64,000 nucleotides of DNA from a phage. The position numbers were made by a program, and so were the translations under genes. A model generated the notes under the pieces. That model saw nothing but the letters and a program-made list of their open reading frames with translations. It had not been told where the DNA came from and ran no database searches. Where the stretch lies: sequence record NC_100372.1, one strand, 5' to 3'. Position 1 is the first letter of the stretch. The number at the start of each line of letters is the position of its first letter. This document shows, in pieces, positions 6,671 through 61,835 of the stretch.

Positions 6671-6683
6671 CACGTTTTTGAGG

Positions 6684-6712
6684 TTGACATCTACCCAGGC
6701 GCTTGGTAAGAT
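6684..6712 (+). promoter_or_regulatory. sigma70-like promoter, plus strand (TTGACA-17-TAAGAT)
   Basis: -35 TTGACA 6684-6689, 17-nt spacer, -10 TAAGAT 6707-6712; back-to-back with the minus-strand promoter. Confidence 0.5.
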
Positions 6713-6743
6713 TTCTCCACCTACAGAGAACAAGAGACAACTC

Positions 6744-7721
6744 ATGAATCTTGAAAAATATTATACACCAGAAGAGTTAGAGCGCTTGCTCAAAAAATAC
6801 AGACGCAAACAGAATAACGCACGGAAACGGGATATAGAGTTCAACCTGTCATGGGAAGAATATCTCCTATTTGGTAAAAAACTTTTAGGAGAGGGAGTAT
6901 GCGACTATACCCTTATACCTTTCGACATGCACACAGATGAAAACGGACTGGGAAATCCTTTCTACCCATCTCTAGAGCGGATAGATGATGAAGGTCCTTA
7001 CGCAATTGATAATTGTTGTGTGGTAGGATTGAGGTGCAACTCTCTGAAGGACTGTCTGGTAGATAAAAAGACTGCAGTCTTGATTAAAGACGAAACTGAT
7101 CGAAAAATTGTCCAGCAGATGATGCTCCACCTGAGCGAAGAGCGTATGGAGAAATTGAAAGGTGATTATACTTTTGAAGATTTCATCTTGCAATATGGAA
7201 CGGAAGAGGATAAACTAGCACTCTTTGACGAAGAAGAGGAGGAAGATATGCTACCTATGTCTAAAGTTACTTATCGTGCACCCAAGAAGCACATTTCTGA
7301 CATTGTAAACGAACCTATCACAGAAGAGATTGAAGAAATGACGCAACAGGTACATGAAGAGGAAAAAGAGACTCAGGAGGTCGAAGAGGGGCTTACAGAA
7401 GAGGTTCCTGCACTACCTGATGATGTTGAGATTGCCAAAGCTTACACCTTCTATTGTCAAACGTTCTACGATGTAGGCATGAAAGTTGATCTGTCGTTCA
7501 GCCAATTTAAGAGCACATACATTCGAAAATGTTGTGCTTTAACTGGTGAGCGTCTCGGGGCCGGACTTAAACCACTATTAGTTACCGACTGGAACAAAGG
7601 TTTCACCAAAGGTAACTTCATGGTGGTATCTCCAATCATGGAAAAAGCTATGACAGACCTTATGAAGACCACCCGCATGACAATGACCGAGTTGGCTGGT
7701 ATTTTCAAGCACGTTAAATAA
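6744..7721 (+). CDS. protein with two degenerate HNH-like (HNH_3-type) modules separated by an acidic linker
   Basis: Track ORF 6678..7721 starts at TTG inside the promoter; ATG at 6744 (MNLEKYY) is the likely start. Module 1: ARKRDIEFNLSWEEY ... CDYTL ... SLERIDDEGPYAIDNCCVVGLRCNSLK; module 2: CALTGERL ... VTDWNKGFTKGNFMVVSPIMEKA. The His of the S-I-D-H-I-D consensus is Arg or absent. Confidence 0.45.
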   Translation: MNLEKYYTPEELERLLKKYRRKQNNARKRDIEFNLSWEEYLLFGKKLLGEGVCDYTLIPFDMHTDENGLGNPFYPSLERIDDEGPYAIDNCCVVGLRCNSLKDCLVDKKTAVLIKDETDRKIVQQMMLHLSEERMEKLKGDYTFEDFILQYGTEEDKLALFDEEEEEDMLPMSKVTYRAPKKHISDIVNEPITEEIEEMTQQVHEEEKETQEVEEGLTEEVPALPDDVEIAKAYTFYCQTFYDVGMKVDLSFSQFKSTYIRKCCALTGERLGAGLKPLLVTDWNKGFTKGNFMVVSPIMEKAMTDLMKTTRMTMTELAGIFKHVK

Positions 7722-7725
7722 TGAC

Positions 7726-7742
7726 AGGGGCCATTGGCCCCT
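7726..7742 (+). other. GC palindrome / stem-loop (GGGGCC-ATT-GGCCCC)
   Basis: Perfect 6-bp GC stem between 6744..7721 and 7755..9215; no clean U-tract follows. Near-identical to the stem of the terminator at 13437-13452. Confidence 0.35.
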
Positions 7743-7754
7743 TCTGGAGTTTTA

Positions 7755-9215
7755 ATGGATAGCAGAAGTTCAGAAATCATTACCGCACAAAAAGATGATG
7801 CCTTGCGAATGCTGCAGGCCGCTCGCATGTATCTTCTTGAAAAGCTGCCGTTTTATGGCACACTGTTGTCAGGGTTGCAGTTCGTAGAAAACCACACATG
7901 GTGCTCCACTATGGCAACAGACCATAAACGCATCTACTACAGCCCTGAGTTCATTATGGGGTTGGCAGATGAGCGTAAAACCATTCTTAAAGCATCTCTG
8001 ACTGACAAGCAGTTTGAGATGGCTGAGGTTTTCTATTCCCCAAAATCTGTGAAAGAGGTGGCATTTCTTCTGTCACATGAGGTGGGGCATATTATCTGTG
8101 ATCATCTGGTCCGTGGTAAAAGCTTTGAGCCGGAACTGTTCAATATTGCTTGTGATCACGTTATCAACACAGGTCTTGTGGTTGACTTTAGCAAGCCTCC
8201 TTGTGTTTTCTTCCCGAAGGGGAAAAGCACTGAGTTCGTAAAAGGTAAGCCTTTTGGCTTCTTAGCTAATTGCTACTGCGACATGAAGTTTCATGGATGG
8301 ATTGCTGAGAACGTCTATGCAGTTCTTGATAAACAAAGAGATCAGAATGGCGGTAAAAGTAAGAACGGTAAAGGTGAGAACTCCCAAGGAGATAAACGAC
8401 AAACCGATGATCACATGAGCGGGAACGGTGGCACTAGTGATGATCTTGGAAAGGCTATGGGGTATGATCAGCCGCAACCAGTAATCAGTCAATCTGATAA
8501 AGATCAGGCCATGCAGGATTCTGGTGACATGTTGGAAGCAGCAATGCAAGCTTCAGGAGGTCGTTGCCCCGAGGCGGTGCGCGAGTTTGTCAAAAACAGA
8601 GGCAAGCCTGTAATCAATTATATAGATATTATTAAGCAACGTATGTTATCTAAAAGAAAGGCTGAGTTAACCTACAGAAAACCTGGTCGCCGATCTGGGT
8701 CTTTGACCACCACAATGCGAAAAGTTGGAGCTATAAACAAGAATCAACACGTTATTGTTCCTGGTCGTAATCCGGAAAACACTATAGATATTGTAGTGGC
8801 TTTAGACGTTTCTGGGTCGATCTCACAAAGAACTTTAAAGAAAATGTTCAATGAGATCACCGGGTTGTGCAATCTGTATAAAGAGTTTAAGGTTACGATG
8901 TTCTGTTGGTCAACCGAGGTTGGAGAGGTTAAAGTATACACTCGCGGTAACATCGATGAGATGATCAACTATGAGGTCCACTCAACATGGGGCACAACAG
9001 CCGCCTGCGTGTTCGAGTATCTAGATGCTAACATACCGAATGCAAAAGATGTCATCGTCCTTACCGACCTCTACTTTGAGCATAACTTTGAACAAAAGGC
9101 TGTTGACAACAAGTGGAAAAAGTACGATACTTTATGGGTTCTCACCGAAGGGTATAATAAAAATTATATCCCGAGCTTTGGGAAAACTGTGGAATTAATC
9201 GAGTACGCTAAGTAA
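7755..9215 (+). CDS. vWA-domain protein with N-terminal HExxH metallopeptidase-like domain
   Basis: Track start 7734 is TTG; ATG at 7755 has SD GGAG 5 nt upstream. HEVGH motif (LLSHEVGHIICDH) in N-terminal half; MIDAS-like DxSGS (IVVALDVSGSIS) in C-terminal half; Gly/Asp/Ser-rich linker between. Confidence 0.6.
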   Translation: MDSRSSEIITAQKDDALRMLQAARMYLLEKLPFYGTLLSGLQFVENHTWCSTMATDHKRIYYSPEFIMGLADERKTILKASLTDKQFEMAEVFYSPKSVKEVAFLLSHEVGHIICDHLVRGKSFEPELFNIACDHVINTGLVVDFSKPPCVFFPKGKSTEFVKGKPFGFLANCYCDMKFHGWIAENVYAVLDKQRDQNGGKSKNGKGENSQGDKRQTDDHMSGNGGTSDDLGKAMGYDQPQPVISQSDKDQAMQDSGDMLEAAMQASGGRCPEAVREFVKNRGKPVINYIDIIKQRMLSKRKAELTYRKPGRRSGSLTTTMRKVGAINKNQHVIVPGRNPENTIDIVVALDVSGSISQRTLKKMFNEITGLCNLYKEFKVTMFCWSTEVGEVKVYTRGNIDEMINYEVHSTWGTTAACVFEYLDANIPNAKDVIVLTDLYFEHNFEQKAVDNKWKKYDTLWVLTEGYNKNYIPSFGKTVELIEYAK

Positions 9216-9230
9216 GAGAGGATGGTATTT

Positions 9231-9488
9231 ATGGCAACAGAGGTAGTAATTAAAGCTGAACGCCCAGTTAAAAAAGCTATCAACACGTTCCCTGTAGGAA
9301 CCATTGTGAGCATGATTACAGAGTCAGGCCGTGTATCTACACTGCTAATCGTGAAATCTGCATGCTCATCTTGTGTGTGGGCATACGATCTTGACGAGAA
9401 AGAACTGAAAGATTTTGTCGGGGAGCTGAAAGCAACAGAGCTTGACGCTCGTATCGAAGTATTTGGTGAAACTATGGAGGAAGAGTAA
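9231..9488 (+). CDS. small protein, member 1 of a tandem paralogous family
   Basis: Second ATG (9231) has better SD spacing than track start 9222. Shares Cys position and C-terminal E-I-x-V/I-F/Y pattern with the next two ORFs. Confidence 0.45.
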   Translation: MATEVVIKAERPVKKAINTFPVGTIVSMITESGRVSTLLIVKSACSSCVWAYDLDEKELKDFVGELKATELDARIEVFGETMEEE

Positions 9489-9751
9489 TGACTACAAAAA
9501 TCACCATTGCAGAACCAAAAGCTAACACGCAACCTATCGAAAAGTTTAAATGCGGTGAGGTGGTAACATTCACACCAGATAATGAAGATGCCAAGATTTT
9601 TGCCATGGTCACAGCCGAGTGGATGTGTGACAATACCACACAGGTGCTGCGTTTTGACACCTATCTTACAGATGAAATCAGGAACGACAAGATCGTGACT
9701 GGTGTGGATACTGAGATTATTTTCTACAAGAGCTTTTTAGAGGGTTTCTGA
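9488..9751 (+). CDS. small protein, member 2 of a tandem paralogous family
   Basis: 87 aa; ATGA overlap with upstream gene; KFxxGEVV ... C ... EIIFY pattern. Confidence 0.5.
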   Translation: MTTKITIAEPKANTQPIEKFKCGEVVTFTPDNEDAKIFAMVTAEWMCDNTTQVLRFDTYLTDEIRNDKIVTGVDTEIIFYKSFLEGF

Positions 9752-9752
9752 T

Positions 9753-9986
9753 ATGGCAAAAATTCGTAAATTATCCAGCAATCAGGTTGTGAAAGACTTT
9801 GAATCTGGAGAGATCTTGTATGTCCGTGATGCAGATGATGAATGTGAAGATCTTGTTATGCTGGTAGGGCACGCTGAAGACGGATGCATCCAGGCTGTTT
9901 TTCTTGAAACAGCGATGGTGCACTGGATAGAGCTGGACCTGAAAGCACGAAAACCTAAAGCAGAAATCATTATTTACGAAGATTAA
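9753..9986 (+). CDS. small protein, member 3 of a tandem paralogous family
   Basis: 77 aa; starts 2 nt after upstream stop; DFESGEILYV ... C ... EIIIYE pattern. Confidence 0.5.
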   Translation: MAKIRKLSSNQVVKDFESGEILYVRDADDECEDLVMLVGHAEDGCIQAVFLETAMVHWIELDLKARKPKAEIIIYED

Positions 9987-10002
9987 CAAGAAGGAGAGAG
10001 CC

Positions 10003-10452
10003 GTGTTGAGCAAACGTGAATGCGACAGCATTAGCCTGAATTCTTATAAGAAACAATGGTTTGGGGTAGAAGTTTGCCGACTACGGCTGGGCTCCTACTT
10101 GAACTTCGTCCATTATGAGAGTGACAGTCGTATCGTTTCTTATGAAGTGTTCTACACTAAGAATACATTCGAGCTGAGACGTAAGGTGGATGGCGGGAGA
10201 TCTACCGCCCAGAATAATTGGGAAACTATTCTGCCTCCAGATGTTATAGGAAGTCCCCTGAATGTATCTGAAGATGAAAATCTTATGGTTCATGCTATGA
10301 TGGGACTTGACAGCTTAGAGCTGGCGATCTATGATATGTCCATCGAAGCAGTTAAGTTGGACTACATCGAAAACACTTTAGAGGAAGGTATCAAGAAGTT
10401 TCTCGGTGAGAAATTGAAAGCCCACTTTCATAAGGAGCTATATCTGTTATGA
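10003..10452 (+). CDS. hypothetical protein
   Basis: 149 aa; GTG start with strong SD AAGGAGAG 4-5 nt upstream. Confidence 0.5.
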   Translation: MLSKRECDSISLNSYKKQWFGVEVCRLRLGSYLNFVHYESDSRIVSYEVFYTKNTFELRRKVDGGRSTAQNNWETILPPDVIGSPLNVSEDENLMVHAMMGLDSLELAIYDMSIEAVKLDYIENTLEEGIKKFLGEKLKAHFHKELYLL

Positions 10453-10694
10453 AGACCCGTAAAGAACGTAACAAGATTTTACCTGGCGCTCTCGAACATA
10501 TGATGAAGTGCAGATCTATCTGGCACTCTGCCAAGGAGGGGCAGCATGTAGTCGTGGTTAGTGATAATGCCAACCCGTTCGGTGATTATGTCACCATGAT
10601 GACTCCATACATCCGCGACGGTGTTGTGGAAGTGGTTCCTTATAGTGGTCTGCATGAGAGGCATTTTGAGAGCACTTTGCTAGTGGAGCTATAA
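10449..10694 (+). CDS. hypothetical small protein (possible diverged fourth member of the paralog family)
   Basis: 81 aa; ATGA overlap with upstream gene; GxHVVVVSD ... VVEVVPY loosely echoes the family pattern. Confidence 0.45.
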   Translation: MKTRKERNKILPGALEHMMKCRSIWHSAKEGQHVVVVSDNANPFGDYVTMMTPYIRDGVVEVVPYSGLHERHFESTLLVEL

Positions 10695-10696
10695 TT

Positions 10697-11263
10697 ATGG
10701 CGGTCAATGTGGCTTACAACACAGGAAAGCTTGACAGAGACATTGGGTGTCTTGTCCTTTCAGATACAGAGGAGTATTGGGGTTATGGGTTGCTGTCAGA
10801 CCCACACCCGAGCAACCTTGTATCAACAGTGCTATATCGCTACGACCCTGTACCAACGGTACACGACAAAGACATTCACGACCTTCGGATCAAGTGTCTG
10901 GAAGATCTTCTGAACAATGGCTGCAACGATCTGCGGGTAGCCAAGGAGAAGCTTACAAACATTCACAAAGAGGAAGTGATGAGCACCCTCAGTAAGAGAT
11001 CAGTGCACAAAAAGATGATGCTGAACTTTGCAATGGGTATCTACATGGATGGGTATAAGGGAGGGGATCCGATCCTCAAGCTTCGCTGCCCAACACTGTG
11101 GGAAAGAGTGGTTGACAGTAAGGACGGTACTGCCCTGCTAGAACTCCACACTGCAGGTTGGATTTGGCGGTATGTGGACGGATACCCTCTGTGGGCATGT
11201 GGGCCCGGTGAGTTTGTTGACAGACCTAGTGCGGTGGTGGATTTGCTATTGCAGTTTGAATAA
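10697..11263 (+). CDS. hypothetical protein
   Basis: 188 aa ORF, 2 nt after upstream stop. Confidence 0.5.
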   Translation: MAVNVAYNTGKLDRDIGCLVLSDTEEYWGYGLLSDPHPSNLVSTVLYRYDPVPTVHDKDIHDLRIKCLEDLLNNGCNDLRVAKEKLTNIHKEEVMSTLSKRSVHKKMMLNFAMGIYMDGYKGGDPILKLRCPTLWERVVDSKDGTALLELHTAGWIWRYVDGYPLWACGPGEFVDRPSAVVDLLLQFE

Positions 11264-12267: not shown

Positions 12268-12648
12268 ATGTGCAAGTGTAAATCTTATAATTGGAAAGTG
12301 AAAGGTGCCAAGCATCCAAATGTTATCGTTGATGTGCCTAAAAAGCTCCGTGACGGCAAAAAACGTGTGTGCCTTGATAAGTGCATGGCTAAACCTATCA
12401 TGAGTCTATGGGCGGCAGGATTGAAAACTCTAAACTGCTGCTGTGGTCATAACAAAGATGTTCCAAGCATCATTATCCCAGAGGATGCAGACCCTAAAGC
12501 TTATGCCAAAATACTGACTCGCTACCCCAGCACCTTTCTGATCGGAAAATGGTGTCACGATGAACTTCAATGGTGGATAGCGTACGGTAGTGTAGGTGCT
12601 GCTTTTGGCTTCCCAGCTTTGTCAGAGCGCTACGTCAAATCATCATAA
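12268..12648 (+). CDS. Cys-rich hypothetical protein
   Basis: 126 aa with many Cys (MCKCK, CLDKC, NCCCGH); SD GGAGAC upstream. Confidence 0.45.
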   Translation: MCKCKSYNWKVKGAKHPNVIVDVPKKLRDGKKRVCLDKCMAKPIMSLWAAGLKTLNCCCGHNKDVPSIIIPEDADPKAYAKILTRYPSTFLIGKWCHDELQWWIAYGSVGAAFGFPALSERYVKSS

Positions 12649-60649: not shown

Positions 60650-60919
60650 TTATCGAGGCACTCGGTGGATGATTCTGACAGTAACCGCATTCTCATTCAT
60701 CAAGTAAGCATCCACATCTCTGTAAATATAAAACTTCTGCTCGCTATCAACAACACAAGCTACTGCCCCTTCAGAGTTGTCTTCAAAGAAGACCACAACT
60801 GCATCGCAGCTTAGTTCATGATACGACTCTCGAAGATTTACAGCAAGAGGGTTGAAATCTTCACGAAAATCTACAGTATGGGTTGGATTTACACGTTCTA
60901 CAATTTTAAGTGTATACAT
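60650..60919 (-). CDS. hypothetical protein
   Basis: 89 aa ORF just downstream of the tRNA array. Confidence 0.45.
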   Translation of the reverse strand: MYTLKIVERVNPTHTVDFREDFNPLAVNLRESYHELSCDAVVVFFEDNSEGAVACVVDSEQKFYIYRDVDAYLMNENAVTVRIIHRVPR

Positions 60920-60965: not shown

Positions 60966-61042
60966 TGGTCTCCACGGAGTGATTCGAACACTCGACCTCC
61001 TGATCCCAAATCAGGCGCTCTACCAAGCTGAGCTACGCGGAG
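60966..61042 (-). tRNA. tRNA-Pro (anticodon UGG)
   Basis: Manual cloverleaf: acceptor CTCCGCG/CGTGGAG, D-arm GCTC..GAGC, anticodon loop UUUGGGA, T-arm GAGTG-TTCGAAT-CACTC, 3' CCA encoded. Confidence 0.65.
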
Positions 61043-61053
61043 TATTTATTATT

Positions 61054-61128
61054 TGGTGGCCCTGGGTGGAATTGAACCACCGTCTGGCGATTATGAGTCG
61101 CTTGCTTGAACCTTCCAGCTACAGGGCC
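61054..61128 (-). tRNA. tRNA-Met or Ile2 (anticodon CAU)
   Basis: Acceptor GGCCCTG/CAGGGCC, anticodon loop CUCAUAA, T-arm GGTGG-TTCAATT-CCACC, CCA encoded; G1-C72 pair argues against initiator. Confidence 0.6.
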
Positions 61129-61129
61129 A

Positions 61130-61205
61130 TGGTGCTGATGGCAGGACTTGAACCTGCAACCTATTGATTACAAATCAATTGCACTGCCAATTGTGCTACA
61201 TCAGC
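61130..61205 (-). tRNA. tRNA-Thr (anticodon UGU)
   Basis: Acceptor GCTGATG/CATCAGC, D-stem GCAC/GTGC, anticodon stem ATTGA/TCAAT with loop UUUGUAA, T-loop TTCAAGT, CCA encoded. Confidence 0.65.
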
Positions 61206-61209
61206 AAAA

Positions 61210-61308
61210 GGTGCTAGGTGATGGAATCGAACCACCTATGTATTCAACGACTACCTCGTCTATTTTCAGGATTAAAAATCCTCGCCCTTGCCAAAGGGCT
61301 TACCTAGC
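61210..61308 (-). tRNA. atypical tRNA-like element (about 99 nt; anticodon arm ambiguous, possibly UUU)
   Basis: Perfect 7-bp acceptor pairing GCTAGGT/ACCTAGC, D-arm GCCC-TTTGGCAA-GGGC, T-arm GGTGG-TTCGATT-CCATC, but about 30 nt between anticodon hairpin and T-arm; CCA not fully encoded. Confidence 0.4.
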
Positions 61309-61406
61309 GCAATATGTTGACCATGTGGCTAGTCGGCGATGACGACTGTAACATTTGATAATCCGGTTCTGCTTCCGGCTTTCGCTTAATTACAAGGTCA
61401 ACAATG

Positions 61407-61497
61407 TGGCGGAGAGTAATGGAATCGAACCATCATCGAGTCATCCTCAACGGGACGGTTTTCAAGACCGCTTGAGCACCATTGCTCCCTACCCTCC
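61407..61497 (-). tRNA. tRNA-Ser (anticodon UGA), long variable arm
   Basis: Acceptor GGAGGGT/ACTCTCC (one G-U), anticodon stem GCGGT/ACCGT with loop CUUGAAA, about 20-nt variable arm, T-arm GATGG-TTCGATT-CCATT, discriminator G, CCA encoded. Confidence 0.6.
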
Positions 61498-61601
61498 TTT
61501 ATAAATTACACTGATAATGACACTGATTTTCGAGCAGTTAGTGACTAGTATAAACGACGATAAATATCAATGTCATTATCTGTATGATTTATGCATTTAA
61601 A

Positions 61602-61688
61602 AATATAAATTTGGTGGGGAGTGGTGGAGTCGAACCACCCGAGTCGCAATGACAATAGATTTACAGTCTACACCGCTACCTCTACGGG
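61602..61688 (-). tRNA. tRNA-Tyr (anticodon GUA)
   Basis: Acceptor GGGGAGT/ACTCCCC, anticodon loop CUGUAAA, variable arm about 13 nt, T-arm GGTGG-TTCGACT-CCACC, discriminator A, CCA encoded. Confidence 0.65.
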
Positions 61689-61692
61689 ATAA

Positions 61693-61767
61693 CTCCCCAA
61701 TTTGGCACCCCGTACTGGACTCGAACCAGTGTCAACGGCTTAGAAGGCCGCTGCTTTATCCACTAAG
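61693..61767 (-). tRNA. tRNA-Arg (anticodon UCU)
   Basis: Acceptor GCCCTGT/ACGGGGT (two G-U), D-arm GCTT..AAGC, anticodon stem GCGGC/GCCGT with loop CUUCUAA, T-arm ACTGG-TTCGAGT-CCAGT, CCA encoded. Confidence 0.6.
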
Positions 61768-61835
61768 CTAACAGGGCACTGGGTGGCTTTCTTTTACACC
61801 TGAGCCGCCAGAAAAGGTGGGAGACCATGTTTATA

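Follow-up and report, generated by a model that had tools for sequence, protein, structure and literature searches.

The sequence record NC_100372.1 provides a stretch of 64,000 nucleotides of phage DNA, analysed here as a whole and referred to as the window, which derives from an rV5-like member of the genus Vequintavirus. Between a gene with metallopeptidase and VWA-like domains and a homologue of rV5 open reading frame (ORF) 17, the window carries three short genes on the plus strand, here named A, B and C, which we interpret as a tandem array of diverged paralogs; a further small ORF, D, lies beyond the ORF17 homologue (Table 1). In the rV5 record the equivalents of A, B, C and D are each annotated 'hypothetical protein'. 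The 3-kb region around the array is 93–98% identical to 117 phage records, nearly all of which belong to Vequintavirus phages of Escherichia (rV5, FV3, V18, BASEL phages and others).

Table 1. Position and properties of the array genes and the features that surround them in the window (aa, amino acids; nt, nucleotides; pI, isoelectric point).
Feature	Position	Strand	Description
Srd-like anti-sigma gene	6678–7721	+	Opens the block; PHROG match
Predicted sigma70-type promoter (rV5 P11)	6684–6712	+	TTGACA, 17 nt, TAAGAT, extended −10 TG; consensus scan
DUF2201 metallopeptidase + VWA-like gene (rV5 ORF12/13)	7734–9215	+	Pfam PF13203, PF09967; upstream boundary, not a family member
Gene A (paralog)	9231–9488	+	85 aa; rV5 ORF14; phrog_10698; pI 4.65; first, polymorphic slot
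Body of A, swappable cassette	9246–9475	+	Replaced by A1 + A2 in 44 of 117 records
Gene B (paralog)	9488–9751	+	87 aa; rV5 ORF15; phrog_12861; pI 4.46
Gene C (paralog)	9753–9986	+	77 aa; rV5 ORF16; phrog_12046; pI 4.59; without the N-terminal strand of A and B
ORF17 homologue	10003–10452	+	149 aa; phrog_6790; downstream boundary; conserved across Vequintavirinae; not a family member
ORF D	10449–10694	+	81 aa; rV5 ORF18; phrog_4868; pI 7.0; not a family member

A first-pass annotation, made from the sequence without database searches, had described A, B and C as adjacent and translationally coupled, and their stop-to-start arrangement is confirmed on the plus strand. The TAA stop of A (9486–9488) and the ATG of B (9488) have one base in common (TAATG), while a single base separates the TGA stop of B (9749–9751) from the ATG of C (9753). 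Each gene has a Shine-Dalgarno sequence of its own (GAGAGG at 9216–9221 for A, GGAGGA at 9476–9481 for B and GAGGG at 9740–9744 for C), placed 7–9 nt from the start codon. Gene A likely begins at the ATG at 9231 and not at the upstream ATG at 9222, since the latter overlaps with the Shine-Dalgarno sequence and A is annotated in rV5 from the equivalent of 9231. All three products are matched end to end by PHROG families labelled 'unknown function': phrog_10698 for A (E 5e-48), to which the related proteins A1, A2, P0044 and P0045 introduced below also belong, phrog_12861 for B (E 9e-62) and phrog_12046 for C (E 2e-53). All members of the family are acidic, with a pI of 4.2–5.0 (4.5–4.7 for A, B and C) and a net charge of −4 to −9.

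The three copies are mutually 15–20% identical, and their pairwise similarity, taken alone, is borderline; Smith-Waterman alignment against shuffled sequences returned z scores of 3.6–3.8 for A and B, 4.1–4.2 for B and C, and 1.0 for A and C. Profile comparison with hhalign gave collinear alignments along the length of the proteins. A profile built from A-type sequences only aligned with B over 77 columns (probability 92.5%, P 4.9e-7, z 15.8) and with C over 68 columns (P 1.1e-4, z 8.2), and a profile of A and B combined aligned with C at a probability of 86% (P 4.9e-6, z 9.3), none of 100 column shuffles reaching the score in any of the three comparisons; the frameshifted fragments P0002, P0006 and P0040–43 were left out of the profiles. 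Run against all 310 ORFs of the window (at least 45 aa), the A-only profile ranked A first, B second and C third, and B and C were aligned collinearly over their full length, as against 8–26 columns for the best unrelated ORFs. The best non-family score of a family hidden Markov model (HMM) among the 310 ORFs went to a beta-rich protein of 89 aa on the minus strand (60650–60919; E ~0.1), which was judged to be a chance match.

Two further sets of sequences bear on the relationship between the copies. P0045, the only family member in a metagenomic relative, is similar to A, B and C alike (Smith-Waterman z 15.5, 6.3 and 6.6 respectively, with none of 2000 shuffles reaching the score in each case), and A1 and A2, which together occupy the place of A in some genomes, are undisputed paralogs (z 18–28), with ~40% identity to A in each case and 36% between themselves. 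Given profile matches that exceed both the shuffled and the real-ORF controls, and given the bridging position of P0045, A, B and C almost certainly share a common ancestor, and the three separate PHROGs in which they are filed form, by these profile comparisons, one superfamily. Its signature combines alternating hydrophobic strands with two motifs, F-x-x-G-[TE]-[IV]-[VL] towards the N-terminus and [DE]-I-x-[IV] towards the C-terminus, of which G23 in the first and I75 in the second are invariant across the family. The first-pass annotation had been right about a paralogous array of three and about the motifs at either end, and similarity goes beyond the shuffled controls that it had asked for (z 8–16 with profiles; for A and C pairwise, only the z of 1.0 given above). 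It had been wrong about a conserved cysteine in the middle of the protein, which is missing in A1 and P0045 and for which the cysteines of B and C align with different cysteines of A.

Beyond the genus the family is almost invisible to sequence searches. Word-indexed searches of 5.8 billion proteins, using either B on its own or the family alignment as the query, found nothing beyond Vequintavirus-like sequences, and an exhaustive HMMER scan, covering 1.84 billion representatives, contributed no more than P0044, P0045 and a single SH3b-repeat protein. A tblastn search of 50,697 phage records with A, B and C (E up to 10) returned outside Vequintavirus only chance matches to Rhodobacter phages (E 2–3). 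Pfam, NCBIfam and PADLOC contained no match to A, B or C, and the family profile found a single, non-significant match among PDB sequences (2mmp_A, E 0.46); no homologue of known function was found in Pfam, NCBIfam, PHROGs, PADLOC or PDB sequences.

Structure prediction points to a common fold. The AlphaFold2 model of A, made from a shallow family alignment of 13 sequences, is all-beta, with a mean predicted local distance difference test score (pLDDT) of 82 and a predicted template modelling score (pTM) of 0.68; it comprises a long N-terminal strand (residues 2–16), a one-turn helix, and strands at 25–29, 35–44, 48–53, 58–63 and 67–78. The model of C (pLDDT 81, pTM 0.68), for which C was placed first in the same combined alignment of the A, B and C families, has five strands in the same order, without the N-terminal strand and offset from those of A by a four-residue N-terminal deletion. 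The first-pass annotation had suggested structure prediction as a check on a shared fold, and the two models give A and C the same predicted five-strand barrel. The family is probably, on these models, a five-strand SH3/Tudor-like beta-barrel to which A and B add an N-terminal strand.

Several known groups of proteins resemble this prediction. The only sequence match outside the family, among the 1.84 billion representatives, is a 540-aa SH3-repeat protein (Pfam SH3_3; whole-library E 2e-4, summed over the repeats), which aligns in register on the F-x-x-G-x-[IV] segment. Bacterial SH3 (SH3b) domains (PF08239 SH3_3, PF06347 SH3_4) are like the array proteins in the predicted five-strand barrel and in an x-x-[FY]-x-x-G-x-[IV]-[VL] segment, but A, B and C are listed by neither Pfam model even at E up to 1, and SH3b domains typically occur outside the cell, as wall-binding parts of larger enzymes, while the array proteins are free-standing and acidic. 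With the barrels of Tudor, KOW and ribosomal L2 C-terminal domains, including the RNA-polymerase-binding Tudor domain of UvrD/PcrA, identity is 4–19%, no sequence family is matched and the likeness is that of a very common fold; neither an aromatic cage nor a KOW motif is evident in the family alignment, although no search was aimed at either. A, B and C fall outside the Sm/Hfq-like class as defined by an N-terminal helix, Sm1 and Sm2 motifs, a structural match and a ring. Similar too are many phage proteins of 70–90 aa with models in BFVD (for example N4 gp21 and proteins of Erwinia phage Rexella and Escherichia phage SU7; TM score 0.6–0.7, Foldseek E 3e-3 to 5e-2), which are like A, B and C in size, predicted fold and place among non-structural genes, though without detectable sequence relationship to them; none of these is annotated. 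N4-like phages also have a DUF2201/VWA gene, as does the window.

Comparison with relatives, likewise proposed at first pass, revealed that copy number varies at this locus from none through one and three to four. No family member was found there in PVP-SE1 (a Seunavirus of Salmonella), a Klebsiella phage, A73 or Certrevirus PBES 02, and in PVP-SE1 and the Klebsiella relative the gp17 homologue comes immediately after the VWA gene, with nothing of the array in between, an arrangement that also holds for A73 and PBES 02. None of the small neighbouring proteins at the syntenic loci of these four phages matches the family profile, and an 85-aa gene of PVP-SE1 between the Srd-like and VWA genes reaches a z of 0.6 against it. 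L008, a metagenomic contig of 123 kb, has exactly one member, P0045, flanked by the VWA gene and the ORF17 homologue; rV5 and the window have three; A51.2, where an array of four genes is annotated, and the diverged L013 lineage have four. A tblastn census of the 117 Vequintavirus records located A (at least 95% identity) in 73, and in the other 44 two places of ~40% identity corresponding to A1 and A2, while B (94–100% protein identity) and C were each present in all 117.

The array genes are accessory, in that they are not found in the sister genera, and a series of none, one, three and four copies at a single locus is characteristic of tandem duplication in place. As is expected of a tandem array, A, B and C are contiguous, lie on the same strand, are homologous and vary in copy number at the locus, and we regard the array as a small accessory gene expanded in tandem within one lineage, which is an ordinary and well-known phenomenon. 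Its ancestor would have been one gene for an acidic protein of about 80 residues, located between the VWA-metallopeptidase gene and the ORF17 homologue, which would then have multiplied in tandem, with one copy in the metagenomic relative, three here and four in one in three Vequintavirus genomes; the copies would have diverged to their present low identity while the core of the barrel, with its two terminal motifs and hydrophobic strands, was kept.

Rates of substitution indicate that every copy is maintained. The ratio of nonsynonymous to synonymous divergence (dN/dS) between orthologs is 0.00 for A (compared with rV5 and FV3), 0.00–0.04 for B (dS up to 1.1) and 0.00–0.16 for C, alongside 0.04 for the VWA gene, 0.07–0.13 for ORF17 and 0.03–0.12 for D. 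Judged from these ratios, A, B and C are genuine proteins under functional constraint and strong purifying selection, and since selection acts strongly on each copy, each presumably has a retained function of its own.

The first slot of the array behaves differently from the rest. In a blastn comparison with A51.2, nucleotide similarity of ~94% breaks off at 9245 and returns at 9476, both positions falling slightly within gene A, so delimiting the cassette that is exchanged for A1 and A2. We considered A as a simple chimera of A1 and A2 and rejected this, as identities to the two are interspersed along the alignment and leave no clean chimera. All four combinations of the state of the A slot with the variant of C are found (in JEP1, slur16, Gotham/A51.2 and EdH4), from which we infer recombination within the array. 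Exchange may also have reached further, since B and C of L013 are 96.5% and 92% identical in protein sequence to those of the window, whereas the flanking ORF17 and ORF19 are 60% and 56% identical, and dS across B and C is 0.47–0.63 (L013:4258–4756 against window 9488–9986) as against 2.4 for the flanks, which suggests that the B–C segment was recently exchanged horizontally between lineages. P0044 (L011:1355–1606), 61% identical to A, stands in another context, upstream of a homologue of ORF24 (window ORF 12268–12648) and preceded by genes of 84 and 211 aa without homologue in the window, indicating that a gene of this family can also relocate.

We favour, with rather better than even confidence, an explanation in which the array consists of tandem-duplicated barrel paralogs that act as small protein-binding modules. 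The genes, along with the Srd-like anti-sigma gene, would be under a host-type sigma70 promoter and would be translated as a coupled string, and their products would be small intracellular modules that, after injection of the genome, bind and modulate host or defence proteins, or possibly phage proteins. B and C, as fixed copies, might address invariant partners, while the first slot, filled by A or by A1 and A2, might serve as an exchangeable specificity cassette moved by recombination. The acidity of the products, the want of any curated-family match, the sigma70 promoter and the Srd-like neighbour are consistent with binding to proteins; these features, the absence of the genes from sister genera and the swappable first slot also speak for the first-pass suggestion of inhibitors that would each target a different host factor. 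Short, non-core, sigma70-driven genes that are packed together and vary between close relatives are characteristic of the host-takeover module of SPO1 and of the hyperplastic regions of T4; those regions comprise mostly unrelated genes, whereas the genes of the window are demonstrable paralogs, two of the three being unusually conserved. A role of A, B and C in host takeover or anti-defence through protein binding is put forward tentatively, as somewhat short of an even chance.

A number of observations weigh against this explanation. Few genes of the neighbourhood are as constrained as B and C (dN/dS 0.00–0.16, mostly at or below 0.09), and both occur in every one of the 117 Vequintavirus records, a pattern of conservation that suits arms-race inhibitors less well than it does a phage housekeeping function or an obligate complex. 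The profile similarity of B and C by itself is weak, its score being reached by 8 of 200 column shuffles, so that the link between these two depends on the A family and P0045. Both structural models were derived from the combined A, B and C alignment, so the identity of fold between A and C is not an independent test, and the SH3-like barrel is among the commonest of small folds and says little on function. No homologue of known function bears on the binding partners of the three proteins, and the timing of their expression as early is suggested by the type of promoter only. In the literature we found no transcriptome for any Vequintavirus and no functional study of the A, B or C genes, and the rV5 genome paper (PMC3606486) contains no occurrence of 'paralog', 'duplicat' or gp14–gp18.

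The main rival, which we consider unlikely, takes A, B and C as subunits of a single hetero-oligomer acting on one target, with translational coupling setting their stoichiometry, by analogy with the eukaryotic Sm ring. SH3/Sm-like barrels often oligomerise, and such a complex would accommodate the stop-start junctions between A and B and between B and C, the co-presence of the very strongly constrained B and C in all 117 records, and the apparent movement of B and C as one segment in L013. It sits poorly, however, with a first slot that may contain one gene or two while B and C stay unchanged, and with the sufficiency of a single copy in the L008 relative; translational coupling, moreover, is common in phage operons irrespective of complexes.

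An improbable alternative is that the array encodes nucleic-acid-binding regulators, comparable to KOW, L2 C-terminal, PWWP or Tudor-like domains, that tune phage or host transcription or translation. The predicted barrel is of a type shared with such domains, but the acidity of every family member, in charge and in pI, would be unusual for direct nucleic-acid binders, and there is no Pfam match to KOW, Tudor or PWWP even at E up to 1.

Returning to protein binding, a more elaborate form of it, for which we see only a slim chance, would make the array a modular specificity system: B and C would form an invariant core on a conserved host machine, in that case for instance RNA polymerase, engaged alongside the Srd-like anti-sigma factor, and the first slot would supply interchangeable subunits that retarget the complex or shield it from strain-variable host defences. 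If true, this would amount to a small viral counterpart of a hetero-oligomeric SH3/Sm-like assembly in which the specificity modules can be exchanged.

That the array has four members, with D as a highly diverged paralog, had been raised at first pass, where D was said to echo the family loosely, and is now very improbable. D is similar in length, lies on the same strand and in the same operon, shows the loose motif resemblance in question (VVVVSD ... VVEVVPY), and reaches a Smith-Waterman z of 2.1 with C (p ~0.05). Across A, B and C, however, the z scores of D run from 0 to 2.1, and hhalign comparison of the family profiles with the D family returned a z of 1.0–1.5, with 8–17 of 100 shuffles reaching the score and alignments of 11–15 columns that are out of register. 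D also stands outside the 20 best matches of either family HMM among the 310 ORFs of the window, its z against the bridging P0045 is 1.5, and it is matched end to end by a different PHROG (phrog_4868, residues 1–80, E 7e-32), its neutral pI of 7.0 contrasting with the 4.5–4.7 of A, B and C. It is not contiguous with the array, from which the unrelated 149-aa ORF17 separates it, and a homologue of D is present beside the ORF17 homologue in L008, where the array is a single copy. On this evidence D is excluded from the family.

The least tenable view, that the array holds three small acidic proteins rich in beta structure but of separate origin, whose resemblance reflects chance and shared composition, can appeal to the weak direct scores for A with C and B with C and to PHROGs, which leaves them in three families despite its remote-homology clustering, but it is rejected by the controls, given full-length collinear profile matches far above those for shuffled profiles and real ORFs, the significant similarity of all three to a gene that occupies this locus in an outgroup, and undisputed paralogs within the same array.

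For annotation, three PHROGs labelled 'unknown function' become a single superfamily for which a fold is predicted. For evolution, it provides a clean, synteny-dated tandem expansion from one to three to four copies in a genus of phages, the rV5-like, that is used therapeutically. Experimentally, the array is a compact target of three or four non-core, strongly constrained genes beside an anti-sigma factor, and the polymorphism between A and A1 plus A2, among phages that are ~94% identical, amounts to a natural experiment on host-range or defence-evasion phenotypes. It is otherwise an ordinary accessory-gene expansion with no bearing on a long-standing open question, and its practical yield consists of the united family, the series of copy numbers, the experimental handle given by A versus A1 and A2, and the exclusion of D.

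The genes around the array form a block in the same orientation, for which the site at 6684–6712 is presumed to be the promoter of the array-bearing operon; the rV5 record annotates the P11 promoter at the corresponding position, and genes 11–26 of rV5 have been proposed as a single transcription unit (PMC3606486). The Srd-like ORF could start as early as a TTG at 6678, in overlap with the predicted promoter; in rV5 this gene is annotated from the equivalent of ~6787, so that the longer reading is probably wrong; the N-terminal part of the ORF also matches PHROGs of endonuclease VII/HNH type. The VWA-like gene bears the label 'HNH endonuclease' in RefSeq and PHROG, where Pfam backs only DUF2201_N and DUF2201, and the label 'tail protein' on the ORF17 homologue has no support from Pfam; both look like propagated misannotations. 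The ORF17 homologue matches gp215 of PVP-SE1 (BLASTP E 4e-11).

In L008 a TnpB/Cas12f-like gene (OrfB_IS605, Cas12f1-like_TNB) is inserted upstream of the Srd-like gene, and the ORF19 homologue is tandemly duplicated, the two copies, of 197 and 183 aa, both being similar to window 10697–11263; these features are located at L008:2119–3258 and L008:6938–8128. Near the other end of the window, a cluster of seven tRNA genes occupies 60966–61777 on the minus strand (Pro, Met, Thr, Ser, Tyr and Arg), and one of them, at 61210–61308, is an odd call of 99 nt whose anticodon has four bases ('tRNA-???', atcc); an ARAGORN artefact, a pseudogene and an unusual tRNA are all conceivable.

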